Part shown: positions 1,786 through 15,809 of the stretch, one piece after another
Position numbering within the stretch: position 1 is the stretch's first letter
How the letters are laid out: each line of letters begins with the position of its first letter
Assembly (NCBI GenBank): GCA_045106895.1
Contig: JBGCFM010000068.1
Coordinates: 1 to 15,809, forward strand
Source: Polyangiales bacterium
GTDB taxonomy: Bacteria; Myxococcota_A; Polyangia; Polyangiales; Houyiibacteriaceae
Reading direction: 5' to 3'
Length of the DNA stretch: 15,809 bases
Translations under genes and position numbers: made by a program
Notes under the pieces: model-generated
What the model saw: the letters and a program-made list of their open reading frames with translations, nothing else
What the model was told of the DNA's origin: nothing
Databases searched by the model: none

Positions 1786-2895
1786 GTGTCACTGAAGATC
1801 GGACAGGACCACACTCGCTTCCGAAACATCGTTCGCGGAAAGATCCGTAAGAACCTGAAGAAGTACGTCTCCCAAGGCGAACTCATCGGTCGCCAGGGCA
1901 AAGACACCGTCTCCATCCCTATTCCGCAAATTGACATACCCAAGTTTCGCTTCGCCGATGAGCAGCAAGGCGGGGTAGGTCAGGGCGAAGGCGAAGAAGG
2001 AGACGGCGTCGGCCAGGGCCAGGGGAAACCCGGCGATGGAAAAGAAGCGGGCCAAGGCGCCGGCGAGCACATGTTGGAAGTCGAGGTCACCCTCGACGAG
2101 CTCGCCGACATCTTGGGCGAGGAGCTAGCGCTGCCGGCCATCGAGCCGAAGGGCAAAGCCACCGTCGTCGACCAGAAAGATCGTTACGTCGGTATTCGAA
2201 GCGTCGGACCCAACTCGCTGAGGCACTTCAAGCGCACCTTCAAGATTGCGCTGCGGCGCCAGATCGCTTTGGGGAGCTACGACAAGGAGCGGCCCATCAT
2301 CATCCCAACGAAAGACGACATGCGCTTTCGTTCGTGGAAGACCGACGAAGAGCCCGTGGCCAACGCCGCCATTATCTACATGATGGATGTGTCCGGTTCG
2401 ATGGGCGACGAGCAGAAAGAGATCGTCCGCATCGAGTCGTTCTGGCTCGATACCTGGCTAAAGAAACAATACAAAGGCATCGAGACGCGCTTCGTCATCC
2501 ACGACGCGGTGGCTCGCGAAGTCGACCGCGACACGTTCTTCTCCACGCGCGAGAGCGGCGGCACCATGATCTCAAGCGCGTACAAAGCGTGCGCCGACAT
2601 CATCGACGCGGACTACCCGCCGAGCGAGTGGAACATCTACCCCTTCCATTTCTCCGACGGCGACAACTGGTCCGTCGATGACACGCTCCTCTGCGTCGAC
2701 ATCCTCAAGAACAAGCTCCTGCCGGCATCGAATGTCTTCTGTTATGGCCAGGTCGAGAGCCCCTACGGCAGCGGTCAGTTCATCAAAGACCTCAAAGAAC
2801 ACTTCGGCGACGACGAGCGTGTCATCACCAGCGAGATCGCCGACCGCGAAGCGATCCTCGGCTCCATCGGTGACTTCCTGTCCAAGGGTAAATAG
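1786..2895 (+). CDS. yeaH: YeaH/YhbH (DUF444) family vWA-domain protein
   Basis: DHTRF N-terminus, Gly-rich GQGEG linker, MDVSGSM MIDAS motif, [11 protein letters not shown] and FSDGDNW motifs; directly upstream of spoVR. Confidence 0.93.
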
Positions 2896-4437
2896 ATGAG
2901 CGCGTTCAAGTTCCAGCGCAGGCTGCCCACGTATCTCCTCGAAGAGCAGAAGCGCGTCGAAGGCTTCGCGCGAGAAGCCGGTCTCGACTTCTATCCGACG
3001 ATGTTCGAGATGCTGGCTTACGACCAGATGAACGAGATCGCTGCCTACGGCGGTTTCCCCACGCGCTACCCGCATTGGCGCTTTGGCATGGAGTACGAGC
3101 AGCTCAGCAAGAGCGCGGAGTATGGCCTCTCGAAGATCTACGAGATGGTCATCAACAACAATCCGTCCATCGCCTACCTCCTCGAAGGCAACAGCCTCGT
3201 CGATCAGAAGCTCGTAATGGCCCACGTGTACGGGCACGTCGATTTCTTCAAGAACAACTTCGCCTTCTCCGCGACGGATCAAGGCAAAAACCGGCGCACC
3301 GGCGCGGCGGTCCGCAAGTGGGTCGACACCATGGCCAACCATGGGTCCATCGTTCGCAAGTGGAGCGGACGCATCGGCGTGGAGAACGTCGAGTCTTTCC
3401 TCGACGCGTGCCTGAGCCTTGAGAACCTCATCGATCCGCAGAAGCCCTTCGAGCCACCACCGGCGAACACCGCGCAGTCGTCCACGGACGAGCCAAGCGA
3501 GGACAACGACGAGCTGCACCTCCTTCGGGTGGAACGCGACTACATGGAGTCCTTCATCAACCCCGATGAGTTCGTCCAAGCGGAGCGAGCGCGTATGGAG
3601 CGGGAGAAGGCCGCCGCGAAGACCTTCCCGGGTTCGCCAGACCGCGACGTCCTCGGGTTTCTGATTCGCCACGCGCCCCTCGATCGCTGGGAACGCGACG
3701 TGCTCACGGTGATTCGTCGCGAGGCCTACTATTTTTTGCCGCAGATGCAGACGAAGATCATGAACGAGGGGTGGGCGAGCTACTGGCACTCTCGTTTGAT
3801 GACGGAGAAGATCTGCGACGCCTCGGAGATCATCGACTACGCCGAGCGTAACGCCGGCGTCATGGCGACCTCCGGCGGACGGCTCAACCCCTACAAGCTC
3901 GGCGTCGAGCTCTATCGGAACGTCGAAGAGCGATGGAACCGCGGACAGTTCGGCAAAGAGTGGGACGAGTGCGACGACTACGACGCACGACGCCACTGGG
4001 ACAGGCGCACGGGTCTTGGCCGCGAGAAGATCTTCGAAGTCCGCAAGCTCTACACCGACGTCACCTTCGTCGCCGAATACCTCACGCCGGACTTCGTGGC
4101 CCAGCAGAAGATGTACGCGTTTGGTTTCAACGACCGAAACGGCCGCTACGAGATCGAGACCCGGCAGTTTGAACAGGTCAAAAAGCGACTCATCTCGCAG
4201 CTCACGAACGCCGGTAACCCCGTGATTCGTGTCCTCGACGCCAACCACGGCAACCGCGGCGAGCTGCTCATGGGCCACGACCACCAAGGCGTGGACCTGC
4301 GCCTCGACTGGGCCCAGGAAGTCATGAACTCCGTGTCTCGGGTTTGGAAACGACCCGTGGAGATCCACACCGTCGTCGACAAGAAGCCCACGACGCTTCG
4401 CTTCGACAAGGGCGAATACACGCAGAAGCCGCGCTAG
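2896..4437 (+). CDS. spoVR: SpoVR/YcgB family protein
   Basis: YPHWRFG, IYEMVIN, AHVYGHVDFFKNN, YFLPQMQTKIMNEGWASYWH and NPYKLG motifs. The ATG immediately follows the yeaH stop. Confidence 0.95.
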   Translation: MSAFKFQRRLPTYLLEEQKRVEGFAREAGLDFYPTMFEMLAYDQMNEIAAYGGFPTRYPHWRFGMEYEQLSKSAEYGLSKIYEMVINNNPSIAYLLEGNSLVDQKLVMAHVYGHVDFFKNNFAFSATDQGKNRRTGAAVRKWVDTMANHGSIVRKWSGRIGVENVESFLDACLSLENLIDPQKPFEPPPANTAQSSTDEPSEDNDELHLLRVERDYMESFINPDEFVQAERARMEREKAAAKTFPGSPDRDVLGFLIRHAPLDRWERDVLTVIRREAYYFLPQMQTKIMNEGWASYWHSRLMTEKICDASEIIDYAERNAGVMATSGGRLNPYKLGVELYRNVEERWNRGQFGKEWDECDDYDARRHWDRRTGLGREKIFEVRKLYTDVTFVAEYLTPDFVAQQKMYAFGFNDRNGRYEIETRQFEQVKKRLISQLTNAGNPVIRVLDANHGNRGELLMGHDHQGVDLRLDWAQEVMNSVSRVWKRPVEIHTVVDKKPTTLRFDKGEYTQKPR

Positions 4438-4805
4438 CTCGGCGGATCCTGTGCGTCTTTCCGCAGCTCGGAGAAATCGATGGCGTCATCAAGGTTGCCA
4501 AGGTCGACGGTGCCGCCGCCCTGATCCGGCGTCCAGCCTCGCGCCAGAGCAATGAGGATGGTCTGTCGGGTCACATAGGGCGGGACCGTGTCAAACCCGC
4601 GACGCATAGAATGGCCGACGGCGTGGTAGGCGTCCTCAATGATGGAAAACGTGTAGTCCGCACAGACTTTTTGGCGCGCGTCGTCGGCCCGCTCGATGAT
4701 CATGTGGCAGAAGTCCTCACCATCGTCCTTCCAGCCATGCGCCATGTACCGATAGGTCGTTCCATGAACATGAATGGTGCGCGTGCCCTTCTTCGGAAGT
4801 GCCAT
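4434..4805 (-). CDS. Hypothetical protein (123 aa; MALPKKGTRTIHVHGTTYRYM...)
   Basis: ORF fills the gap. Its stop overlaps the spoVR stop (CTAG). ATG 4805 chosen because TAAGAT lies 7 nt upstream. Confidence 0.7.
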   Translation of the reverse strand: MALPKKGTRTIHVHGTTYRYMAHGWKDDGEDFCHMIIERADDARQKVCADYTFSIIEDAYHAVGHSMRRGFDTVPPYVTRQTILIALARGWTPDQGGGTVDLGNLDDAIDFSELRKDAQDPPS

Positions 4806-4878
4806 GGAGACAATCTTAGCCGAAGAGGCCCCACTCGGAGAAGTTGCGCTCTGTGCGGCGAATGCGCACCCTGAATGC

Positions 4879-5187
4879 ATGTTTCGGACGTTAGTGCTCA
4901 TCGCGGGGGTTGTTCTGGTCGCGCCTTTCGACGCGATGGCCGACGAAGTCGAAGGACCACGCTGCGTCGAGGTTCGTAAGTCCGCCCCTTACCGCGGTTT
5001 CGGTCACCACCACATCGTCACCGTTCGCAACACCTGTGACGACGATGTCCGCTGCCGAATCTCCACGAATGTCACGCCGCAGACCCACAGCATCACGGTG
5101 GCCGCAGGCGAAGAAGACAGCGTGATCACGCGAACAGGCTCGCCGGCGTCGGTTTTCGAAGCCCTCGTGGACTGCGAAACGCAATAG
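4879..5187 (+). CDS. Small secreted protein with four Cys (102 aa)
   Basis: Signal peptide-like N-terminus MFRTLVLIAGVVLVAPFDAMA with an AMA cleavage site; beta-rich mature region with 4 Cys. Confidence 0.75.
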   Translation: MFRTLVLIAGVVLVAPFDAMADEVEGPRCVEVRKSAPYRGFGHHHIVTVRNTCDDDVRCRISTNVTPQTHSITVAAGEEDSVITRTGSPASVFEALVDCETQ

Positions 5188-5210
5188 GCGGACTGCGAAA
5201 CGTCATAGGG
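5169..5210 (+). repeat. Imperfect 21-bp tandem repeat spanning the stop codon
   Basis: GGACTGCGAAACGCAATAGGC / GGACTGCGAAACGTCATAGGG, 18/21 identical. Confidence 0.85.
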
Positions 5211-5260
5211 AGCACGAATTCTCGCGAGTCCTGGGCGGCCGCTGCTAAGGTCGCTCTCCA

Positions 5261-6814
5261 ATGAAGCGCGACATCTACGCCGATCTCTTGAGTGACACGC
5301 GCGGAATGCGCCGTGACCAGGCGAAGGCGCGTGACCGCTGGTATGCAGAGCTTGAGCTCGACCAAAAAGAGGCGCGTCTTTTCGAGCTTGAGATGCTCCT
5401 CAAGAGCTTCGCCTGCTTTACAAACCCGAGAAATCACACGGGTGTTCCAGGCTCCATCGCCATCGCCGCGCACGACTATCGGCACGAGTTGCGTGTGATC
5501 AGCGCCGGCGTCGAGCGAGCCAGTCACTGCATGCGTGACCTGCTGGGTGAACGCGACCGAGCGTTTGTCTTTAGCCGCTACTTAGAGACGGTGATGCCCG
5601 AAGACGGCGCCCGGCATGAGCTGCTGCAACACCAGCTCACGCAGTTCACCCCCGAGGAGTCACTCTTTGTGCTGCGAAATGCCTTCGCCGCGTTTGGTGA
5701 GCTCGCCTCGGGCCTTCGTGATCTCGGACGCATTCCTCATCGCGTTCACACCTCGCTGACCAACACCATCACGCGAGAGATCGCGCGCAGTGACTACTTC
5801 AACCCCTTGGTCACGCTCGAGTTTCGCCCCGAATTCGATCGAATTCGCAGCGCGCCAATCCTGACAGCGCTCCACTCGGCGACGGCCCACGCACATCGCG
5901 TCCTCGCGCTGACTTTCCTGGCGCTCTTTCGCCTGATTCGTTACCTCAACCTCGTAGACACCTACGCCAAGGACCCACGAACAGAGCGACTGGCTCTTTT
6001 GATCCTCGCGGTCTTCCGAAGCGACGCCCGCGCACTCTGCTACCAGCTTGAAGAACGAACCGGCGGCGCGCTGGCAAAGAGCTTCGAGGAACGCATCTAC
6101 TCCGTCTCCGCCGTGAGTATTCATCGCGAGCACGAGACACTTCACAAAGAGATGGAGACGCTCGACTCACTTCGCGGAACCCTCGAAGCCGTGGGCCAGA
6201 GCATTCGCCTCGAAGGCGCGCTCGTCCTCACCAACGAGCTGCCGACCCCCGAAGAAGCGCCGCGCGACGGTACTCTGGGCCCCCGCCTGGTCATCGCAAG
6301 CGCCTCACTTCGGGCGATTCTCCACCATGGAATCGTGAGCGTGGCGAACGAACTTGACGACTCTTTGGAGCTTGGAGACCTCGGCTCCCAAGAGAAGCTC
6401 GCCCTCGAATCAAGCCTCCGACTTCGCCGCGACGTGTGGGGCTTCCGCCAGGTGCTCCGCGCGTTCCTCGCGAAAGCCGACGGCGCCGCCGTGGTCACAG
6501 ACCAATGGAATAGCTACGCGAACTTCTCCTACGTGCGTGAGTTCCTCGAACACTTTCGCGCCATCGGTTACCAGCTCGCGCGACGAAGCGACTACCCCGC
6601 CTTCGACCGCTTCCTCGACAGCGTCGGACGACTTCGTGAGGTCGACCTCCTCGACCCAGAGCGCATGGACGAAGTCATCGAAGAGTGCCGCCGCTTCATG
6701 AAGTACCTCGGCGAGCTTTTCCGGCGCATCAACCGCCGAGCCGACCTCGCTCCGCATCCATTCGACCGCTTGCAGGCAGCGGAGCACCTCCGGCTCTACC
6801 TCGGCGCCGCCTGA
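5261..6814 (+). CDS. Hypothetical, probably alpha-helical protein (517 aa)
   Basis: Long ORF with protein-like, Leu/Arg/Glu/Ala-rich composition; no recognised motif. Confidence 0.85.
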   Translation: MKRDIYADLLSDTRGMRRDQAKARDRWYAELELDQKEARLFELEMLLKSFACFTNPRNHTGVPGSIAIAAHDYRHELRVISAGVERASHCMRDLLGERDRAFVFSRYLETVMPEDGARHELLQHQLTQFTPEESLFVLRNAFAAFGELASGLRDLGRIPHRVHTSLTNTITREIARSDYFNPLVTLEFRPEFDRIRSAPILTALHSATAHAHRVLALTFLALFRLIRYLNLVDTYAKDPRTERLALLILAVFRSDARALCYQLEERTGGALAKSFEERIYSVSAVSIHREHETLHKEMETLDSLRGTLEAVGQSIRLEGALVLTNELPTPEEAPRDGTLGPRLVIASASLRAILHHGIVSVANELDDSLELGDLGSQEKLALESSLRLRRDVWGFRQVLRAFLAKADGAAVVTDQWNSYANFSYVREFLEHFRAIGYQLARRSDYPAFDRFLDSVGRLREVDLLDPERMDEVIEECRRFMKYLGELFRRINRRADLAPHPFDRLQAAEHLRLYLGAA

Positions 6815-6843
6815 GCTGTTCCGCCAGGCCTGTTCGGGCCGCT

Positions 6844-7146
6844 CTAGCGGACCGGCGTGGATTCCTGTGGGAACTGGAAGACAAGTTCGCCATCGCGGAC
6901 CATGCCCAGCTCATCGCGGGCGACGGACTCAATGGCGTTCGGATCGTTACGAAGGCGCTCTACCTGGCGCATCAGCGCGCCGGCGCGGCGGTCCAGTTCG
7001 ACATTCCGCTCTTTGACCTGCTCAAGCTCCGTACGCAGCTGGCGGTAGCGCGGCAGACCTTGCTCATCGAGGATCTGCAAGGGCACGACGACGACCGCCA
7101 TGACGAGGAGCGCAAAGGGGAGCACCCACGCTGAAGAACCCTGCAT
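6844..7146 (-). CDS. ftsB: Septum formation initiator FtsB/DivIC family protein (about 100 aa)
   Basis: Single N-terminal TM helix, coiled coil, and C-terminal IESVARDELGMVRDGELVFQF matching the FtsB/DivIC signature. The start is uncertain (7146 vs 7182). Confidence 0.85.
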   Translation of the reverse strand: MQGSSAWVLPFALLVMAVVVVPLQILDEQGLPRYRQLRTELEQVKERNVELDRRAGALMRQVERLRNDPNAIESVARDELGMVRDGELVFQFPQESTPVR

Positions 7147-7264
7147 GGGTGGACCGTCGCAAAAGTACTCCTTCGCCGCCAATTATCGGCCAGATTTGCA
7201 GTTCTGCCCTCGCCAAAAGGCGCCCAAGGGCGGTCTTGCCAAGGCCGTGCTACTTTCCGCCCTT

Positions 7265-8299
7265 GTGAGTGAGCTGAGCCACCGAGGACGTCGCATCCTC
7301 TACGTTGCGATCACCGAGTATATCCAGAGCGGTGAGCCCGTCGGCTCGCGGACGCTGGCCAAACGTGACGGCATCGACCTCTCGCCCGCCACGATTCGCA
7401 ACGAGCTCGCCGACCTCGAAGAAGCAGGCTTTCTCCACCAGCCCCACACGTCCTCCGGCCGCGTGCCGACGACAAGGGGTTTCCGGGTATTCGTGGACGC
7501 CCTGGTGCAGATGCGCGAGGTCTCCGCGAGCGACCGGGCCGTGGTGATGCAACGCCTCGACAAGATGCAGCCCGGCAGCGACGTGCTCAGTGAGGCGGGC
7601 GAACTCCTCAGCGCACTCACCGGCGCCGCCGCCGTCGTCACCGGGCCCAAGCCGGAAGAAGAGCGGCTCGCTCAGCTACGTTTCATGCCGCTTCGCGAAG
7701 GCCAGCTCCTGGCCATCCTGGTGACCAAAGGCGGCGCGGTTCAGAATCGCGTTGTGGCCATCCCGGACGGGTTTGACCCAGAGGGCGTTGAGCGGATTCA
7801 TAACCTCTTGGACGAGCTCCTCCAGGAGGCGCCGCTGAGCCTTGTCGCGGTGCGCGATGAGCTCGCCAGTGAGATCGGCGCCGCCGAGGGAGCCGTCAAG
7901 AGCCTCCGAGAGAAGGCCCGAGCCATCATCGACGCCGCCGTCGACAACGACCAGCAGCCCACCTCGCTCGTCATCGAAGGCCAAGATCGCCTCTTCGACC
8001 GCCCTGAATTCCTCGATGCGGACAAGATTCGCCGCTACCTGCGGGCATTTGACGACAAAGGCCGGCTCGTCGATCTCCTCGAAGAGACCCTTGCCGCGGG
8101 AGGCGTCCGCGTGCTTATCGGCTCCGAAGCTGGTCTCGGCGACGTGGAAGACGTCAGCATCATCTCCAGCAGTTTCCGGAAGAGCGGCTCCCTTGGGGTC
8201 ATCGGGCCCACCCGAATGGACTATGGCAAAGTAGTGCCACTCGTAGAATTTACCGCAAAAGCGGTAGGTCAGGTCCTTGCGAACGCGGACGAAGACTGA
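7265..8299 (+). CDS. hrcA: Heat-inducible transcription repressor HrcA (344 aa)
   Basis: EPVGSRTL, LSPATIRNELADLEEAGFLHQPHTSSGRVPT and LGVIGPTRMDY motifs. GTG 7265 gives the usual N-terminus. Upstream of grpE-dnaK. Confidence 0.96.
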   Translation: MSELSHRGRRILYVAITEYIQSGEPVGSRTLAKRDGIDLSPATIRNELADLEEAGFLHQPHTSSGRVPTTRGFRVFVDALVQMREVSASDRAVVMQRLDKMQPGSDVLSEAGELLSALTGAAAVVTGPKPEEERLAQLRFMPLREGQLLAILVTKGGAVQNRVVAIPDGFDPEGVERIHNLLDELLQEAPLSLVAVRDELASEIGAAEGAVKSLREKARAIIDAAVDNDQQPTSLVIEGQDRLFDRPEFLDADKIRRYLRAFDDKGRLVDLLEETLAAGGVRVLIGSEAGLGDVEDVSIISSSFRKSGSLGVIGPTRMDYGKVVPLVEFTAKAVGQVLANADED

Positions 8300-8392
8300 A
8301 CGAAAAGTGAACGCCGTTTTCCTCACAGGTTCTGTGACTCATGCGCCCAAATCGAGTTATCGTCCCCTCTGATTTCCAGGAGTGACAGGCAC

Positions 8393-8956
8393 GTGACGAC
8401 ATCGACCGAAGAGACTGAAAATACGATCCCCCAGCCCGCGGCGGATGGCGAGCCTTTAGAGCAAGTTGAAGTAGCCCCTGAGGTGGAAGAAAAGCCGAAG
8501 GGACCCGACGCGCAGGCGCAGATCACACGTCTGAAAGAGCAGCTTCTGCGAACCGCAGCGGACTTTGACAACTTTCGGAAGCGAGCGCGCAGAGACGTCG
8601 AGGAAGCATCCCGACGTTCCAAAGAGCAGGCGGTCTCCGAGCTGCTCCCCTTGGTCGACAACCTCGAACGAGCGGTGGAATCCGCTGGGGGTGCAACGGA
8701 TGTCGAAGCCGTCACGAGCGGTATCAAGATGGTGCTGCGCTCGTTCTCCGACATCGCCGGCAGGCTCGGCCTGGAGCGCGTAGACGCAGTGGGCCAAGTC
8801 TTCGACCCCAACCTGCACGACGCCGTGCAGCAGGTGGAAACCGATGAGCACCCGCCCGGAACCATCGTCACCGAGATCACGCCCGGCTACCGGCTTGGTG
8901 ACAAGCTTCTTCGTGCGGCGCTCGTCGTCGTATCTCGCCCCCCATCTGGAAACTAA
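8393..8956 (+). CDS. grpE: Nucleotide exchange factor GrpE
   Basis: LRTAADFDNFRKR, LLPLVDNLERA, FDPNLHDAV and GYRLGDKLLRAALVVV motifs; SD AGGAG at 8378-8382. Confidence 0.96.
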   Translation: MTTSTEETENTIPQPAADGEPLEQVEVAPEVEEKPKGPDAQAQITRLKEQLLRTAADFDNFRKRARRDVEEASRRSKEQAVSELLPLVDNLERAVESAGGATDVEAVTSGIKMVLRSFSDIAGRLGLERVDAVGQVFDPNLHDAVQQVETDEHPPGTIVTEITPGYRLGDKLLRAALVVVSRPPSGN

Positions 8957-8969
8957 GGGGAGCTGAACG

Positions 8970-10811
8970 TTGGGAAAAGTCATCGGAATTGACTTGGGGA
9001 CCACCAACTCATGCGTCGCGTTTGTCGACAACGGTGAGCCGGTGGTCATTCCCAACGCCGAAGGTTCACGAACGACTCCGTCCGTTGTCACCGTCACCAA
9101 AGACGGAGACCGCCGCGTCGGCAGCGTCGCTAAGCGACAGGCCGTCACGAACGCCACGGACACCATTTTCGCCGTAAAGCGGCTGATGGGCTTGGAGTTC
9201 GACAGCGACGACGCCCGTCGCCAAGCATCCCTCGTTCCCTACAAGGTGATTCAAAACACCAACGGGGACGCCTGGGTGCAGGCAGGTGGGAAGGATTACT
9301 CCCCGCCTGAGATCTCGGCGATGATCCTCCAGAGCATGCGTGACATCGCCGAGGCTTATATCGGCGAGTCCGTCACCGAAGCTGTGGTTACGGTTCCTGC
9401 GTACTTCAACGAAGCGCAGCGAGCCGCCACAACGGCCGCCGGTAAAATCGCCGGACTCGATGTGAAGCGCATCATCAACGAGCCCACCGCCGCTGCCCTC
9501 GCCTACGGCTTCGAGGAAAAAGACGGCAAGCGCATCGCGGTCTACGACCTCGGTGGCGGCACCTTCGATATCTCGATCTTGGAGATCGCCGGCGGCGTCT
9601 TCAAAGTTCGCTCCACCTCCGGGGATACACACCTCGGTGGCGAAGACATCGACATGCTCCTCGTCGAAGAGCTGGCCCGCCGCTTCAAAGAGAGCAGCGG
9701 CATCGACCTTCGTGAAGACCGTGTCGCTCTGCAGCGCCTCAAGGAACAAGCTGAGAAGGCGAAGCACGAGCTGAGCACATCGCTTGAGACCGACGTGAAC
9801 CTGCCCTTCATCGCGGCGGACGCCACCGGGCCCAAGCATCTTGAGACACGCATCAAACGTAGCGAGCTTGAGATCTTGGTGAGTGCGCTCATCGATCGAA
9901 GCCTAGAGCCTTGCAAGCAAGCCCTCGCAGACTCTGGTCTCACAGCCGCAGATATCGACGAAGTGCTCCTCGTCGGTGGTCAGACCCGCATGCCGATGGT
10001 GCGCAAGAAGGTCGCAGACTTTTTTGGTCGTGAACCCTACAAGGGCGTGAACCCCGACGAGGTTGTCGCGATGGGCGCGGCTCTCCAAGGTGCAGCGATG
10101 ACCGGCGAGGTCGCCGAGGTTCTGCTCCTCGATGTCACGCCTCTGAGCTTGGGCGTAGAAACTGGCGGCGGCGTGTTCACCGCGATCATTCCCCGCAACA
10201 CCACGATTCCGACGCGCGCCAAAGAGATCTTCACGACGAGCGTCGACAACCAGCCCTTCGTGCCTATTCACGTCCTCCAGGGCGAGCGCGATATGGCGGC
10301 GGACAACACGACGCTCGCGAAGTTTGAGCTCGCGCCGATCTTGCCCGCGCCGCGCGAGGTTCCGGAGATCGAGGTGTCCTTCGACATCGACGCCAACGGT
10401 ATGGTGGAGGTGACGGCGCGGGATCTTCGCTCCGGCAAGGTACAGAGCATTCGAGTTGTCGCCTCTTCGGGTCTCACCGCCGAAGAGCTGGACCGAATCA
10501 TCGCAGAATCGGACCAGCACAAAGAGAGCGACCTCAAACGCAAGGAGCTCGCCGAGCTTCGAAACAGCGCGCAAGGCCTGCTCTACACGAGCGAGCAGGC
10601 GGCGGCGGAGTGCGCCGACTTGGTCGACGCCGAGATCATCGAGCAGGTCCAGACAGATGCGAAGGACCTGCGCGACCTCATCGAAGGTGATGGCGACGCC
10701 ATCGCGATTCGCGACGCCCTTCAGACGCTTGAGCTGAGCGCCTACCGCATCGCTGAGTCTATGTACTCAGAAGACCCGCCAGCTGCGGACCCCGCTCCCG
10801 AAGAGGGTTAG
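8970..10811 (+). CDS. dnaK: Molecular chaperone DnaK (Hsp70)
   Basis: [36 protein letters not shown] and [11 protein letters not shown] motifs; TTG start with GGGGAG SD. Confidence 0.98.
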
Positions 10812-10835: not shown

Positions 10836-12194
10836 TTAGCGCTGAATCTCGAGGGCGCGCATCTTCTTGTAGAGGTGGCTGCGCTCGAGGCCGAGGTCCT
10901 TCGCCGTGTTCGTCGCGTGACCCTTGTGATGCTCCAGCGCCCGGATGATGAGTTCGCGCTCCACCGTCTCGAGCATCTCCCGAAGGGGCGTGCCTGGCCG
11001 GTAGTGCGTCCCGCCACCACCTCCGCTGCCCATGGGCAGCAGGCCTCGGACTTCGGACTCGATGACTTCGTCCCCAGGCGTCAGAATGACGATGCGTTCG
11101 ACGAGGTTTCGGAGCTCTCGGACATTGCCAGGGTAGTCGTAGCCGCTGAGAAGGTTCATGGCGCCGGTCGTCAGTGACTTTCCGCGGCGGTCGTTGTTGA
11201 TGCACGCCTGGCGAAGAAAGTGTGCGACGAGGAGTGGAATATCCGAGGTGCGCTCGCGCAGCGCCGGCACGCGGATCGGCAACACGTTGAGCCGGTCGTA
11301 GAGATCAGCGCGGAAACGTCCTTCTTCGATCTCTTTGTGCAGGTCCTTGTTCGTCGCCGCCACGACACGAACGTCGACGTTGATCAGCTCGGAGCCACCA
11401 ACGCGTTCAAGTTCGCCTTCCTGGAGGACACGAAGCAGCTTCGCCTGCATATTCGTGGGCATATCGCCGACCTCGTCGAGGAAGAGTGTGCCTGCGTCGG
11501 CGCGTTCGAACTTGCCTCGGCGCTGTTTCGTCGCGCCGGTGAACGCGCCAGCCTCGTGACCAAAGAGCTCGCTCTCGATGAGTTCCGCAGGAACCGCCGC
11601 GCAGTTGAGCTTCTCGTAGCTCTTCTTGGCGCGCTTGCTGCCGAGGTGAATCGCCCTGGCGACGAGCTCCTTGCCCGTGCCACGCTCGCCGATGACGAGG
11701 ACATTGGCGTTGGCGTCACTGGCGAGATGAATGCGCTGCCGGAGTTCCTGAATGGCGCTGCTCTCACCGAGGATCTCGTGGGTGGCGCCGGCTCGCTCGC
11801 GAAGTGAGCGGTTCTCTTCCGCGAGCTGCGCGAAGCCGAGGCCATTGCGAAGCGCGAGGAGCAAGCGCTCGGTGCTGATGGGCTTCTCAAGAAACGTGAA
11901 CGCCCCGAGCTGCGTCGCCTCCACCGCCGTCTCAATGGTCCCGTGGCCACTCATCATGATGACCGGGACGTCGTTCTTCTGCTCGCGAAGCGAGCGAAGA
12001 ATGCTCAGGCCGTCCCCATCCGGAAGCTGAACGTCGAGGAGCAAGAGGTCATACGCCTTCTGGGCGACCTTCTCGTGGGCAATAGCGGCGTTCCCCGCCA
12101 CGTCGACGTCGTAGTCTTCGACGCGCAACGCGCGGGAGAGCGTCGAGAGGATGTTCTTTTCGTCATCGACGATGAGCACGCTTGCGAGGGCCAT
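10836..12194 (-). CDS. Sigma54-dependent response regulator, NtrC/NtrX family (REC-AAA+-Fis HTH; 452 aa)
   Basis: REC domain (VLIVDDE, LLDVQLP, FLEKP), Walker A GERGTGKE, ESELFGHEAGAFTGA, LFLDEV, YPGNVREL and C-terminal HTH (TAKDLGLERSHLYKKM). ATG 12194 has TAGGCT 7 nt upstream. Confidence 0.95.
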   Translation of the reverse strand: MALASVLIVDDEKNILSTLSRALRVEDYDVDVAGNAAIAHEKVAQKAYDLLLLDVQLPDGDGLSILRSLREQKNDVPVIMMSGHGTIETAVEATQLGAFTFLEKPISTERLLLALRNGLGFAQLAEENRSLRERAGATHEILGESSAIQELRQRIHLASDANANVLVIGERGTGKELVARAIHLGSKRAKKSYEKLNCAAVPAELIESELFGHEAGAFTGATKQRRGKFERADAGTLFLDEVGDMPTNMQAKLLRVLQEGELERVGGSELINVDVRVVAATNKDLHKEIEEGRFRADLYDRLNVLPIRVPALRERTSDIPLLVAHFLRQACINNDRRGKSLTTGAMNLLSGYDYPGNVRELRNLVERIVILTPGDEVIESEVRGLLPMGSGGGGGTHYRPGTPLREMLETVERELIIRALEHHKGHATNTAKDLGLERSHLYKKMRALEIQR

Positions 12195-12228
12195 GCGCCG
12201 GAGCCTAGCGCGAGTCTTGGCTTGGGCG

Positions 12229-12924
12229 CTAGATGCGCGCGCCGTGGCCGCCGACGAAGAACACAGCGCCGACGAGAACAGCCGCCGCGGGCACGTAGAT
12301 GCCAACGGTGCTCAGATCGCGTAGTAGCGCGTTGTCGGGTCCTGCGGCAGCGTTGACCAGACCATCGATGGCGTTGTCCGACGAAAAGACAAGCTCACGG
12401 TCGCGAAAGCAGCCCTCCATCGTGATGTCGCCATTGAGCGTGAAGCGCTCGTCCGTATCGATGTCTCGGAACGCGCAGTCCATGCGGATCGTGCCGGCGC
12501 CGCCTTCGTCGTAAGAGATGAGGTCGAAGGAGCATGGCCGGTCCTGAAAACCCTCGAGCCTTCGGCCCTGATAAGAGATGGCGCCGATGAGCCTGGGGGT
12601 GTTCTCTACGATGTCGTCCGCGTCGACGGAATCCCCGATCATCTGAACGCTCAGCTCCAGGTCGAGATTGGGACCGGCCAGAAGAACCAGCAGCGGCAAG
12701 TCCTCGCGGAGCAGGCTTGGCGTTGCGCACATGATCTGGTTCTGCTCAAGCGCGCCGTTCGCAAGCTCGAGGTCGACGATCTGAACAGCATCCCCGCCGT
12801 CCGCTTCGACTTGAAGCGCCCCGGTCACATATGCGTCGTCGACGCTGCGGTAGAGGTCGACGCTGCACCCGCCAAGGAAGCAAACGCAGAGAGAGAAGCG
12901 GAGAAAATGGTTGGAGTTCGTCAT
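12229..12924 (-). CDS. Hypothetical lipoprotein with C-terminal hydrophobic helix (231 aa)
   Basis: Lipobox-like FLGG-C at residue 20; acidic mature domain with several Cys; C-terminal VGIYVPAAAVLVGAVFFVGG. Confidence 0.7.
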   Translation of the reverse strand: MTNSNHFLRFSLCVCFLGGCSVDLYRSVDDAYVTGALQVEADGGDAVQIVDLELANGALEQNQIMCATPSLLREDLPLLVLLAGPNLDLELSVQMIGDSVDADDIVENTPRLIGAISYQGRRLEGFQDRPCSFDLISYDEGGAGTIRMDCAFRDIDTDERFTLNGDITMEGCFRDRELVFSSDNAIDGLVNAAAGPDNALLRDLSTVGIYVPAAAVLVGAVFFVGGHGARI

Positions 12925-12939
12925 GGTGGTGCAGACCAG

Positions 12940-12955
12940 TGCAGAGGTTGTGCCA
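12940..12955 (-). promoter_or_regulatory. Sigma54 (-24/-12) promoter for the lipoprotein gene
   Basis: Minus strand TGGCAC-AACCT-CTGCA has exact GG-N10-GC spacing against the consensus TGGCAC-N5-TTGCW. Confidence 0.7.
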
Positions 12956-13123
12956 GGGCGATAACCCGGGGCTTTGCGGCCGTCGCGGACTTGTGTTCAC
13001 GCATCCAGGGTGAATAGGAGGCACACTTCACAACACGCGCCATCTGTATATGGACGTATCCCGCCATATCCACTCGAGTGTTGAGAGTCTACGTTTTGGC
13101 GTAGTTTTTACCAGATTCGGTGT

Positions 13124-13139
13124 TGGCACATCTCCTGCG
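13124..13139 (+). promoter_or_regulatory. Sigma54 (-24/-12) promoter for the ncRNA-TROVE unit
   Basis: TGGCAC-ATCTC-CTGCG with GG at 13125-13126 and GC at 13137-13138. The predicted TSS near 13150 is just upstream of the RNA 5' end at 13156. Confidence 0.75.
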
Positions 13140-13155
13140 ATGTACTGGAGCACAT

Positions 13156-13286
13156 ACCGGGGTAGCTCAGTGGTTAGAGCGCGTAAACATCCCGCCTCGT
13201 TGTTCTCCGCTCCGGCGGCAGTGAGTGGGCGGGTTACTTCATTTTGGATGACGAGGTCGCTGGTTCGAACCCAGTCTCCGGTACCA
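13156..13286 (+). ncRNA. tRNA-like RNA with a 55-nt insertion in the anticodon stem; probable Y RNA (YrlA-like) partner of the adjacent Ro60/TROVE protein
   Basis: Acceptor ACCGGGG/CTCCGGT + A + CCA; TA linker; D arm GCTC-AGTGGTTA-GAGC; variable region AGGTC; T arm GCTGG-TTCGAAC-CCAGT; hairpin insertion at 13185-13239. It ends 40 nt before the TROVE ATG. The cloverleaf is seen directly; the Y RNA identity is inferred from context. Confidence 0.85.
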
Positions 13287-13326
13287 AGCCAACAGTCGAA
13301 AACGACGCGTACGAAAGGACGCAGCC

Positions 13327-14934
13327 ATGTCTCGTTTCCACTCCACCCGCGCTCGCTCCAAGGCGACGCACAAGAACTTCATGGGCGGCGCATCCCACTG
13401 GATCCTCGACCCTATTACGCGCCTTCGCGTCGCGGCATCGAGCTGCTTCTTTGGCGAGCCTCAATACTACCGCCGTGACGAGAAGGACACTCGCCCTTCG
13501 CGTTACGCGATGCCTATTCGCCAGTCGGACGTTCGCCGACTTCGCAAGTTGCTCGGGGCTCTGGAGCCAACGGCGTGGAGCGGTGTGACTCCTTCGGAGC
13601 GCATGGAAATGGCCATCGACGCAGCCCTCGACTTCGACGTGGAGCGCACGCTGCGGGAGGCCGTTCGACTTCGCACCGAAGCGTACATTCGCACGACACC
13701 TCAGGTGATTCTCGTTCGCGCGGCAAACCACCCGAAGGCAAAAGGAACGGGTCTGGTTCGCAAGTATGCGCGGCAGATCATCGCTCGCGCCGACGAGCCA
13801 AGCGTGGGCCTCGCCTACCAGCTCTGGCGTTACGGAAAGCCTATCCCGAACTCGCTGAAGAAGGCGTGGCGGGACGCGCTGCAGGGCGCGAAAGTCTACC
13901 ACTTGGCGAAGTACCGAATGGACTCGCGCGACGTAAAGACCGTGGACGTCGTCAACTTGGTCCACGCGAAGAGCGACGCAGTCAACTCGCTGACGCAGGG
14001 TGAGCTCAAGCAGGACGGATCTACGTGGGAGAGCATCCTGAGCGGGCCTGGCGCAAAGACGAACTCTTGGCGACGCGCGCTACCGGTGATGGGTCATATG
14101 GCCTTGCTCCGAAACCTGCGGAACTTGATGACGGCCGGAATCGCGACGGACAAGCTCATCGCGCAGCTCCTGGACGGCGCGAAAACCGGAAAGCAGCTCC
14201 CTTTTCGCTACTACAGCGCCTACCGCGCGATCAAAGCGACGGGTCAAGCGCCAGGCGTGCTTCTCGACGCGGTCGAAGAGTGCCTGATGCTGAGCCTGAA
14301 GAACCTGCCTACGTTCCGTGGCCGTGTGATGTCGCTCTGTGACAACTCCGGCAGCGCGCGGGGAACAGCGACGTCCTCGATGGGAACGATGCAGATCTCG
14401 ACCATCGCGAACCTCCAAGCTGTGCTCACGGGCATGGTCAGCGAAGACGGCCACGTTGGCGTGTTCGGCGACAAGCTCGATACCTTTGCGATTCGTCCGA
14501 AGGCGAGCCTCTTCGATCAACTCGACGCGACAGAACAACGCGGAACACGCGTTGGCGCAGGCACCGAGAACGGCGTCTGGCTCTTCTGGAACCAGGCGAT
14601 TCGAGCGCGACAGCGCTGGGACCACGTGTTCGTGTACTCGGACATGCAGGCCGGCCACGGCGGGCTCTTCGGCAAAAGCCCAAGTGAATACAAGGACTTC
14701 ACCTGGGGCACGCGGCACATCGATGTCTCGAAGCTCGTGGCAGAGTACCGCCGCAAGGTGAACCCAAAGGTCCACGTGCACCTCGTGCAGGTGGCGGGCT
14801 ACCAAGACACGATTATGCCGGAACACTACGATCGCACGACCATCCTTGGCGGTTGGGGCGATGGCCTACTCCGCTTTGCGGCGGAGTTGGCGCACCTCCG
14901 AGACGGCAACCACGCCGTCAGCCTCGCTCAGTAG
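13327..14934 (+). CDS. TROVE-domain RNA-binding protein (Ro60/Rsr-like) with C-terminal vWA domain (535 aa)
   Basis: TWES, MGHMALLRNLRNL and KQLPFRYYSAY TROVE motifs; vWA MIDAS DNSGS and YSDMQ; C-terminal LGGWGDGLLRF; SD GAAAGGA. Confidence 0.9.
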   Translation: MSRFHSTRARSKATHKNFMGGASHWILDPITRLRVAASSCFFGEPQYYRRDEKDTRPSRYAMPIRQSDVRRLRKLLGALEPTAWSGVTPSERMEMAIDAALDFDVERTLREAVRLRTEAYIRTTPQVILVRAANHPKAKGTGLVRKYARQIIARADEPSVGLAYQLWRYGKPIPNSLKKAWRDALQGAKVYHLAKYRMDSRDVKTVDVVNLVHAKSDAVNSLTQGELKQDGSTWESILSGPGAKTNSWRRALPVMGHMALLRNLRNLMTAGIATDKLIAQLLDGAKTGKQLPFRYYSAYRAIKATGQAPGVLLDAVEECLMLSLKNLPTFRGRVMSLCDNSGSARGTATSSMGTMQISTIANLQAVLTGMVSEDGHVGVFGDKLDTFAIRPKASLFDQLDATEQRGTRVGAGTENGVWLFWNQAIRARQRWDHVFVYSDMQAGHGGLFGKSPSEYKDFTWGTRHIDVSKLVAEYRRKVNPKVHVHLVQVAGYQDTIMPEHYDRTTILGGWGDGLLRFAAELAHLRDGNHAVSLAQ

Positions 14935-14948
14935 AGCGAAACTACCCA

Positions 14949-14987
14949 GGCCGCTTTCGTTTCTAGAGAGAACGGGAGCGGTCTTTT
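14949..14987 (+). terminator. Rho-independent terminator after the TROVE gene
   Basis: GGCCGCTTTCGTTT-ctagaga-GAACGGGAGCGGTC forms a 14-bp stem followed by TTTT. Its G-U pairs form only in the + strand transcript. Confidence 0.75.
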
Positions 14988-15809
14988 CTATGTTGGGGCG
15001 ACCTCTTCGTTCGCGTCCACGCGTCGGAGCAGGCCCGGAACATGCGCGCCCAGCGTCAACGTCCGCGCCACGTAGTGAACGTAGAACGCCGCCCAGAGAC
15101 CGTGGTTTTCGTAGGGCAGGAGCAGCCACCAAGCGGCGAAGAAAAGTCCCGTGCTCAGGAGCATGCTGTTCCGCATCGCCGGGCCTTGAGTCGCGCCGAT
15201 GAACACTCCGTCGAGCTGAAAGGCGAGGACGCCGGCGAGGGGGGCCAGCGCCGCCCACAGCATGTAGTCTCGGGCGACCTGGCGCGTCTGCACGTCGACG
15301 GTCAGCGCGTCGATGATGTGCGCGCCGAAGAGCAAGAGGACAAGAGTCGCGACGCCGGCAAAGAGCGCGGCCCAGAACGTCGTGCGGAGAGCAGCGGCGC
15401 GGAACGTCTTGCCATCACGCGCTCCGAAGGCACGACCCACCAGCGCCTCGGCTGCGTAAGCGAGGCCATCCAGGAAATACGCGGAGGTGTCGATGAAGTG
15501 CATGAGCACGGCGTTAGCCGCGAGGACTTCGTTGCTGATAGAGGCCCCCTGTGCGCTGAAGAATACGAACACGACGACCAGCGCCATGGAGCGGACCATG
15601 ATGTCGAAGTTGACGGCGAGGGTGCGCTTTAGACGGGCGCGGTCCATGAGCCGCGCCCAGGTTGGGATCCCTTGGATGTGGCGACTCGCGACGACGAGGC
15701 CGACGACGGCGGCAAACCACTCTGCGGCGACGGTGCCGTATGCGACGCCCTCCACGCCCCATTCGAAGCCCAGCACGAAGAGCGCGTCGAGGGCCATATT
15801 CGTCAGGTT
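14988..15809 (-). CDS. MATE-family efflux transporter (DinF-like), 5' part outside the window
   Basis: N-x-x-LD-x-LFV, GVEGVAYGTVAAEW, LAANAVL, FLDGLAYAAEALVG, FQLDGVFIGAT and NHGLW motifs; many TM helices; the frame is open to the window edge. Confidence 0.92.
   Translation of the reverse strand, partial: NLTNMALDALFVLGFEWGVEGVAYGTVAAEWFAAVVGLVVASRHIQGIPTWARLMDRARLKRTLAVNFDIMVRSMALVVVFVFFSAQGASISNEVLAANAVLMHFIDTSAYFLDGLAYAAEALVGRAFGARDGKTFRAAALRTTFWAALFAGVATLVLLLFGAHIIDALTVDVQTRQVARDYMLWAALAPLAGVLAFQLDGVFIGATQGPAMRNSMLLSTGLFFAAWWLLLPYENHGLWAAFYVHYVARTLTLGAHVPGLLRRVDANEEVAPT

Follow-up and report, generated by a model that had tools for sequence, protein, structure and literature searches.

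Why should a bacterial tRNA gene carry 55 additional nucleotides (nt) in its anticodon arm and stand directly in front of a protein gene? The locus that raises this question comes from a Polyangiales bacterium (assembly GCA_045106895.1, contig JBGCFM010000068.1). The DNA analyzed, referred to below as the window, is the whole contig of 15,809 nt (15.8 kb) from a 7.7-Mb draft genome that is 96% complete. Positions 13156–13286 of its plus strand hold a 131-nt tRNA-shaped RNA, here called RNA1, and a gene for a Ro60-like TROVE protein starts 40 nt 3′ of it on the same strand. Comparison of related loci leads us to consider RNA1 a probable Y-RNA-type mimic of tRNA, related to YrlA and serving as the RNA partner of this TROVE protein. 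An earlier note on this DNA described the structure of RNA1 in terms that stand. It overlooked the TROVE gene, which is the key to reading RNA1, and its ideas about function fared less well.

RNA1 has the native topology of a tRNA, as judged by the Rfam tRNA model, by a covariance model of our own (R1), and by covariation. On the plus strand, its 7-bp acceptor stem (13156–13162 paired with 13276–13282) encloses a D arm, an anticodon arm that is split, a variable loop of 5 nt, and a T arm, and the 3′ end carries A73 (13283) and an encoded CCA (13284–13286); acceptor pairs 1:72, 2:71, and 3:70 are A-U, C-G, and C-G. The Rfam tRNA model matches 13156–13283 from end to end (model positions 1–71) with 44.3 bits, against a gathering score of 29, and spends 66 nt on the anticodon arm where it expects 11. 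The additional letters occupy 13185–13239. Beyond them, the distal part of the anticodon arm (CA-UUUUGGA-UGACG, 13240–13253) presents UUG at 13244–13246, and its stem is completed to 5 bp by C13182, G13183, and U13184. R1 gives RNA1 128.9 bits, the only long match in the genome, and no Rfam family besides tRNA was matched in the window or in 13 related loci. Contigs from three sequencing data sets (X1, X2, and X5) show the stretch without insertions or deletions, and the X2 contig spans it in one piece with 5 listed differences, none of them listed inside 13156–13286 (7 other letters in the piece).

ARAGORN calls no tRNA in the intact 131-mer or in the whole window. When 13185–13239 are removed in silico, the resulting 76-mer is called as tRNA-Gln(UUG) with a 5-bp stem (CGUCA/UGACG), a 7-nt loop (UUUUGGA), A73, and CCA, and the claim of the earlier note that a 55-nt deletion restores a 76-nt UUG cloverleaf is thus borne out. 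Its coordinates and letters for the RNA were all correct on rereading the sequence, and we likewise place the insert within the anticodon stem and not the loop, in the 5′ strand at 28/29 or 29/30. The structural reading also supports its opinion that this is no intron of the group I type. Because ARAGORN accepts 72 of 96 other deletion variants of the window RNA as well, such a splice-site test on a single sequence is weak, and comparative data have to carry the weight.

The gene behind RNA1 (13327–14934, plus strand) encodes a 535-residue TROVE-domain protein with the Ro60 fold, a ring of HEAT repeats joined to a von Willebrand factor A (vWA) part with a DxSGS motif. Pfam detects the TROVE domain in the window protein (E 1e-8) and in all 19 relatives aligned with it; the Pfam vWA_Ro60 model finds nothing in the window protein and is matched in 6 of the 19 relatives. 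In a phmmer search of the PDB, the Ro60 of phage phiLo was the best match (E 6e-15), and the DNSGS of the window protein aligns with its DxSGS. An AF2 model built on the 19 relatives (pLDDT 77.9) was used with Foldseek, and all 12 matches at E ≤ 3e-10 (ranks 1–13) are Ro60 chains, from phiLo, Deinococcus (Rsr), Xenopus, and human, with TM values up to 0.73 for phiLo. Fold and position together make the TROVE protein the probable protein partner of RNA1.

Is this arrangement particular to one genome? A protein search of 201 genomes of the order yielded 15, the window's own included, with close TROVE orthologues (57–65% identity), and RNA1 lies upstream of the TROVE gene in 14 of these 15 loci (all except L015). 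It is also present in L001, a Polyangiales metagenome-assembled genome (Myxococcota) that holds the closest public relative of the locus; L044, which belongs to a different family within the phylum, holds two copies. The RNA of L001 falls below the gathering score of the Rfam tRNA model, yet R1 gives it 132.7 bits; 10 further long RNAs of this kind pass the Rfam threshold. In an alignment of 15 sequences (A1), 95.9% of structure cells are paired, compared with 39–46% when partners are slid. Compensatory changes occur in 14 of 31 pairs, five of them among the seven pairs of the acceptor stem; the T stem and each helix of the insert contribute further ones, and the D arm is invariant. The Levitt pair 15:48 covaries too, being G:C in 11 sequences and A:U in 4. 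Covariation of the acceptor stem, the T stem, and 15:48 is strong evidence for a predicted tRNA L shape. These data also bear on the idea that the locus is a decayed tRNA gene, broken by a chance insertion and left functionless. The silence of ARAGORN on the intact sequence and an undistinguished fold energy would suit such a relic, but conservation of the RNA extends over families of the phylum, 14 of its 31 pairs show compensatory changes, its promoter motif is conserved, and its linkage to TROVE is fixed; decay strikes us as barely conceivable.

The insert itself turned out to be the best conserved non-tRNA part of RNA1. By the alignment of 15, RNAalifold, and pair counts, 13185–13239 form a conserved module, which leaves the anticodon stem on its 5′ strand, and both helices of the module, P1 and P2, covary. 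Across the family the module runs AAACAC, P2b, about 4 nt, GUUCUC, P1, a loop, P1′ (GcAG), UGAG, about 3 nt, P2a, and GGUUACUUC, with the CUC of GUUCUC opening P1; the window version reads AAACAU-P2b-UCGUU-GUUCUC/P1-loop-P1′/GcAGUGAG-P2a-UUACUU. P2b (CCCGCC, 13191–13196) pairs with P2a (GGCGGG, 13228–13233), with changes on both sides in three of five pairs. The stretch from GUUCUC through the P1 hairpin to GCAGUGAG covers 13202–13225. In it, 13205–13209 pair with 13216–13221, C13219 is bulged, and 13210–13215 form the loop; 96% of the alignment cells of P1 are paired and two of its five pairs are compensatory. Between P1 and P2 lies an asymmetric conserved internal loop with UGAG on one strand and GUU on the other. 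GUUCUC, GCAGUGAG, and GGUUACUUC are nearly invariant.

The same module is found a second time in most relatives, circularly permuted and without tRNA arms. Of the 15 order-sample loci, 14 have this RNA2 on the 3′ side of RNA1, as does L044, and the order within RNA2 is P1a, CAGUGAG, P2a, UUACUUC, a small hairpin, AACAC, P2b, GUUCUC, and P1b. Nine of its 14 pairs are compensatory, and its P1 has the bulged C of RNA1. The window and L001 are without RNA2, and the module is single-copy in the window's genome. Retention of sequence and pairing, together with occurrence in the absence of tRNA exons, marks the module as a working part of an RNA and not as an intron. Most likely, on this comparative evidence, it folds into a docking site for the Ro60-like protein whose gene follows directly. 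The so-called intron would then be the part of the RNA that does the work, and the tRNA frame with its generic anticodon arm would be the scaffold.

The earlier note had suggested that the insert might be excised and the ends rejoined by an RtcB-type ligase. In the version assessed here, an endonuclease would cut out a 55-nt intron and RtcB would join the halves into a working tRNA-Gln(UUG). The deletion product is indeed a textbook cloverleaf with an encoded CCA, and RtcB genes, for which the note asked the genome to be checked, are present at two sites, which shows nothing by itself. As in archaeal noncanonical tRNA introns and permuted tRNA genes, the insertion is inside the anticodon stem and its deletion restores a cloverleaf. 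Archaeal introns, however, need a bulge-helix-bulge and a splicing endonuclease. At RNA1 there is no bulge-helix-bulge, the junctions being 6-nt single strands beside the 6-bp P2 helix, and the PF01974 endonuclease was not found in this 96% complete genome, whereas the control search was positive in four archaeal genomes. The insert, moreover, is the conserved part: it is better conserved than the "anticodon" when the alignment is set against the anticodon calls, and it occurs without tRNA exons in 14 related loci. With anticodons that differ among homologues, several of them beginning with A34, a body unlike the tRNA-Gln of the genome, and two normal tRNA-Gln(UUG) genes at hand, we judge splicing very unlikely. 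The two RtcB loci are at C149:20274-24371 (L033 and L034) and C113:42448-43701 (L032). The RtcB gene on C149 adjoins a gene for a sigma-54 activator-like (RtcR-like) protein with 49% identity to the AAA+ part of the activator encoded in the window, and the two are likely an rtcR-rtcB pair that lies away from both TROVE loci of the genome.

What, then, of the anticodon arm? A composite 5-bp anticodon stem, with two or three pairs before the insert and two or three after it, is kept in 17 of 17 members, and a 7-nt loop in 16 of 17, which settles in the affirmative a check on conservation of the stem-loop that the earlier note had proposed. The 5′ strand of the stem consists of 2–3 nt (0–5 in L044) directly after position 26 and a remainder directly after the insert. 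In a control with the shuffled 3′ strand of another member, a mean of 2.2 of 17 and a maximum of 6 were reached in 200 trials. Across members, the anticodon arm is complete apart from the module, which branches off sideways from its 5′ strand.

The triplet within the loop behaves quite differently. Taking for each of the 17 members the dominant ARAGORN call over deletion variants, we obtained UUG for the window and UCG for its closest relative, L001. The other calls are CCU for L004, L005, L007, and L009, CAU for L003, CCA for L008, ACA for L010, AUC for L011, UAU for L012, AGG for L013, AUU for L014, UCU for L016, and UCC for the L044 copy at 1501; L006 and the L044 copy at 1248 gave no clear call. 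Thus 12 different anticodons occur, and CCU alone recurs. Four of the calls (ACA, AUC, AGG, and AUU) have A34, which decoding tRNAs of bacteria almost never use. The genome also has ordinary tRNA-Gln genes, two UUG (another check proposed earlier) and two CUG, and among its own tRNAs the body of RNA1 is nearest to tRNA-Gly(UCC) and unlike tRNA-Gln, in keeping with the earlier remark that its acceptor identity differs from that of E. coli-type tRNA-Gln. A decoding tRNA-Gln(UUG) was accordingly rejected, given anticodon and identity elements that orthologues do not conserve, the tRNA-Gly-like body, and the two normal UUG genes.

The same variation weakens the other functional guess of the earlier note, a decoy or sensor for anticodon nucleases. 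In the version assessed here, a toxin or stress nuclease would cut the anticodon loop that RNA1 keeps, and the cleaved RNA would signal via the TROVE protein. Known anticodon nucleases are anticodon-specific. Since the triplet changes freely among homologues, even between the window (UUG) and its closest relative (UCG), a decoy for one such nuclease fits badly, and Pfam finds no nuclease gene beside the locus in the window. On the other side stand the anticodon stem-loop geometry kept in every member, mostly with U33, and the rsr-yrlBA-rtcBA operon of Salmonella, which, according to the accessible part of the report, responds to damaged tRNAs (PMC7790460). On balance we find a decoy or sensor quite unlikely.

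How is RNA1 made? A sigma-54 −24/−12 motif (TGGCAC-ATCTC-CTGC) is located at 13124–13138 on the plus strand, 17 nt 5′ of the start of RNA1, and TGGCAY-N5-NNGC precedes the RNA by 15–46 nt in all 16 loci tested; in the genome, the strict motif has 44 occurrences in 15.4 Mb (both strands). No sigma-70-like site was found in 12800–15200. Directly after the TROVE stop codon, a terminator-like hairpin of 15 pairs, 7 of them G-C, with a T-rich tail (14948–14984, plus strand) is the probable end of the transcription unit. A divergent gene at 10836–12305 on the minus strand encodes an NtrC-family sigma-54 activator with receiver, AAA+, and HTH_8 domains (Pfam and NCBIfam). Its adjacency makes it a candidate regulator of the putative promoter, and in L001 a 98% identical activator gene adjoins the RNA, ending about 170 nt from it. 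These signals suggest a single sigma-54-driven unit that would run from RNA1 through the TROVE mRNA to the terminator.

Such a unit invites the thought that RNA1 is a cis-acting leader that stays in the 5′ untranslated region of the TROVE mRNA and offers the protein a site for feedback on its synthesis or on mRNA stability. RNA1 does end 40 nt before the start codon with no promoter-like site between, and in relatives both RNA1 and RNA2 are within the TROVE leader. Against this, the acceptor stem, the discriminator, and CC(A/G) are conserved and covarying, as end-processing enzymes require; in L046, L048, L051, and L056 long tRNA-like RNAs lie 3′ of the Ro60 gene; and the published YrlA RNAs are, in the part of that study accessible to us, free RNAs (PMC4201824). 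A leader role, which would be compatible with RNA1 being a Y-RNA-type partner of the TROVE protein, appears unlikely to us.

The closest known counterpart of RNA1 is YrlA (RF02553), and our account of published Y RNAs follows the accessible parts of the papers cited. Ro60/Rsr proteins of bacteria and phages bind YrlA, a Y RNA that resembles tRNA (Chen et al. 2014, PMC4201824; Wang et al. 2018, 10.1101/312249). YrlA is described as a circularly permuted tRNA in which the acceptor is a closed stem-loop, a free CCA end and an anticodon loop are missing, and the 5′ and 3′ ends form the Ro60-binding stem that leaves the body at the anticodon stem (PMC4201824; 10.1101/312249). For YrlA, too, a tRNA L shape has been argued from covariation (PMC4201824). 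RNA1 and YrlA share a position near a Ro60/TROVE gene on the same strand (within 4 kb as the criterion for YrlA, 40 nt for RNA1), conserved D and T arms with a covarying 15:48 pair, a binding rod that leaves the body at the anticodon stem, and the junction motifs ..CGGUUAC.., AAAC before P2b, and GGUC before the T arm. Each also has a neighboring second partner RNA that lacks a full tRNA body, YrlB beside YrlA and RNA2 beside RNA1. By eye, the YrlA-II seed alignment (PMC4201824, supplementary text 2) has the motif order of RNA1 but is broken in the binding stem instead of the acceptor stem. The order common to the two is binding strand, P2a, GGUUAC, small hairpin, GGUC, T arm, acceptor, D arm, AAAC, and P2b. 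In our reading of its actinobacterial rows, hairpin V has a 7-nt loop and completes a 5-bp stem with two nt after the D arm, as in RNA1.

The differences are those of topology. YrlA is permuted (T arm, closed acceptor stem-loop, D arm) and has its ends in the binding stem, whereas RNA1 keeps the native order of acceptor 5′ strand, D arm, anticodon arm, T arm, and acceptor 3′ strand. RNA1 has an open acceptor stem with A73-CCA, its rod is closed by a loop, and the 5-bp/7-nt anticodon arm is retained. Lacking the permutation, the strict YrlA motif, and a match to the Rfam model, RNA1 stands apart from the YrlA family as it is now described. In the literature that we searched, with partial coverage, no description of an unpermuted Ro60-linked tRNA-like RNA was found.

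Two other systems are instructive. Yrn1 of Deinococcus radiodurans, a partner of Rsr, is described with D-like and T-like arms in tRNA order and a 5-bp "anticodon arm" between them (PMC4201824). It thus resembles RNA1 in its tRNA-like traces, in the order of its arms, and in being the partner of an Rsr/Ro60-type protein, as predicted for RNA1. In Yrn1, according to the same source, the Rsr-binding stem stands in for an acceptor stem, the presence of a D arm is doubtful, and the loop is of 6 nt, whereas RNA1 has a true 7-bp acceptor stem and a rod off the anticodon stem. Thermus phage phiLo, whose Ro60 is the closest solved protein, encodes Yrl1 and Yrl2, stem-bulge-stem RNAs with a CGAA motif (PMC12135203; PDB 9KOP and 9L5Y). 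Two Y-like RNAs are found directly 5′ of its Ro60 gene, like RNA1 and RNA2 in the present family, but in the part of the report available to us they are described as stem-bulge-stem RNAs with no tRNA frame reported, and RNA1 is framed by a tRNA.

The permuted layout is also represented in the window's own genome. In front of a second TROVE gene on contig C125 (C125:8900-12400, minus strand; loci L162, L163, and L166) lie two permuted YrlA-like RNAs that carry a GGCGAAUG motif, a T arm, a closed acceptor hairpin, and a D arm. They score 50.3 and 48 bits with RF02553, below its cut-off of 69, and are the only such matches in the genome. These RNAs contain the strict YrlA motif GNCGAAN0-1G, and arrays of tRNA and tRNA-like genes also precede the C125 TROVE gene. 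Permuted and native layouts, each with its own motif, indicate that two protein-RNA pairs coexist in one genome.

How far do RNAs of the unpermuted kind extend? We scanned 151 genomes of the phylum with R1 and considered the best 150 matches. Among the matches listed are further long (109–145 nt) unpermuted tRNA-like RNAs from elsewhere in the phylum. Eight such loci were examined, and in seven of them (not L054) the RNA is beside canonical TROVE and vWA_Ro60 genes on the same strand; in five of these seven, a GNCGA(N) motif, YrlA-like by eye, precedes GGUUAUCG-like letters. Two viral contigs have clear RNA1-type members, at L135:355-503 (72.2 bits) and at L080:162-290 (69.3 bits, with an ACCA end). 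Modules of the RNA2 type occur on the viral contigs L137, L089, L093, L103/L105/L123, and L131, and on L137 the module stands in tandem before an open reading frame beginning MSRFNT.., like a TROVE gene. A third arrangement is seen on the viral contig L147, where GGUUACUUC runs straight into a D arm. The pattern scan of viral contigs gave 90 stretches, a number that by a rough estimate is attainable by chance; 84 matches in 80 loci were examined, a flanking feature was present in 22, and about 15 look like true modules by eye. Among named phages, Bacillus phage G (gp540, 40% identity) and a Desulfovibrio phage (38%) encode the closest TROVE proteins; a search within 2.5 kb of these genes revealed neither the module nor a long tRNA-like RNA.

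Other TROVE loci have tRNA-like genes of ordinary length. In a group of TROVE paralogues with 31–35% identity to the window protein, each locus has a 75-nt tRNA-like gene with a CUGUUAA loop (GUU), most of them without an encoded CCA (L017:193-267, L022:219-293, L023:3552-3626, L024:180-254, L025:243-317, and L026:3434-3508). Further tRNA-like matches are present in L019 and L049, the latter with about 13 in a row beside a Ro60 vWA gene. At L030:2662-2833, beside a distant TROVE homologue, the start of a D arm and the end of a T arm are 172 nt apart and enclose a long unrelated insert. With acceptor pairing of 6/7 and 25.6 bits with R1, this may be another long-armed tRNA-like RNA.

Several features are found in the flanks of the unit. 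Just 5′ of the sigma-54 motif, a hairpin (CUACG-UUUUGG-CGUAG) followed by UUUUU at 13089–13109 (plus strand) resembles a terminator that would shield the unit from read-through; its loop letters UUUUGG are also those of the anticodon loop, probably by chance. The distance between promoter motif and RNA1 is 33–39 nt in L003, L004, L005, L007, L009, L014, and L016. These long-leader relatives have ..CUCUGCGUCGG.. and a small hairpin before RNA1 in common, and the window, with its 17 nt, is without both. A 231-residue open reading frame at 12229–12924 (minus strand), between the activator gene and RNA1, has a lipoprotein-like N terminus (..CFLGGCS..), no Pfam or NCBIfam match, and no relative in L001 by tblastn. 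Stress-related genes lie farther off in the window at 1786–10811: DUF444, SpoVR-like, and then hrcA, grpE, and dnaK.

Several observations count against RNA1 being a YrlA-related Y RNA. The predicted fold energy of the 131-mer is no better than that of shuffled sequences (z −0.59). The strict motif GNCGAAN0-1G is absent; RNA1 has GCAGUGAG at the equivalent place, and 5 of 8 positions agree. RF02553 is unmatched in the window, both at its gathering score and at E ≤ 10. The homologues are kin, so that the counts of compensatory changes overstate their independence. The distant long matches of the phylum scan reach 60–74 bits with R1 (60–70 at TROVE loci), compared with up to about 65 for ordinary tRNAs, and their grouping with RNA1 therefore rests on length, neighborhood, and motifs seen by eye. 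Finally, a well-shaped anticodon loop is retained (Y32-U33 and mostly R37, by eye), which a pure scaffold role leaves unexplained.

Regardless, reading RNA1 as a Y-RNA-type mimic of tRNA allows us to propose how the system could work. The sigma-54 promoter, probably activated by the divergent NtrC-type protein, would give a single transcript of RNA1, the TROVE mRNA, and the terminator. The tRNA-like body would fold into the L shape that the acceptor, T-stem, and 15:48 covariation supports, and, given its 7-bp acceptor stem, A73, and CC(A/G), it would probably be excised by tRNA end-processing enzymes. From the 5′ strand of the anticodon stem, between 28/29 and 29/30, a two-helix rod (P2 and P1), bordered by AAACAC and GGUUACUUC, is predicted to branch off. 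Standing in place of the Ro60-binding stem of YrlA, this rod is the likely docking site of the TROVE ring. In Deinococcus, a Y RNA tethers Ro60 to PNPase. On that model, the tRNA-shaped part of RNA1 would present the ring to a tRNA-binding effector.

A further-reaching proposal is that RNA1 is bifunctional and still moves in tRNA pathways, either with true ends made by RNase P and 3′ processing or CCA addition, or with a cut at the stem junction that releases a free Y RNA and a tRNA, and that it also represents an unpermuted, ancestor-like form of YrlA. Taken jointly, these ideas are doubtful, although their consequences deserve mention. With its open acceptor stem and its anticodon arm, RNA1 could be handled by modification enzymes, a synthetase, EF-Tu, or the ribosome while carrying the Ro60 ring, and RNA surveillance would thereby be tethered to translation. 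Y RNAs would descend from one tRNA whose anticodon stem received a Ro60-binding hairpin, and not from a tRNA transcribed as a dimer.

Overall, the known bacterial Y RNAs are permuted and are without a free acceptor end or an anticodon loop, and members of the RNA1 family arrange those parts in the order of a native tRNA, with a 7-bp acceptor stem that carries a discriminator and CC(A/G), an anticodon arm of full size, and the predicted protein-binding rod as a side branch. In annotations, such genes will appear as tRNAs interrupted by a large insert or intron, and they should be kept out of any tally of decoders. Ro60 proteins of a divergent, phage-like clade may recognize the compact, conserved module made up of P1 (including the bulged C), the UGAG/GUU loop, P2, and GGUUACUUC, and the coexistence of a permuted and an unpermuted system, each beside its own TROVE gene, is a natural test of partner specificity. 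RNA1 also makes it testable whether Ro60-bound mimics use the machinery of tRNA end processing, CCA addition, or charging, which part of the tRNA shape is read by the effector of a Y RNA, and whether a single tRNA that gained an insertion or a dimer of tRNAs gave rise to Y RNAs, the dimer being a model cited in the accessible part of 10.1101/312249.

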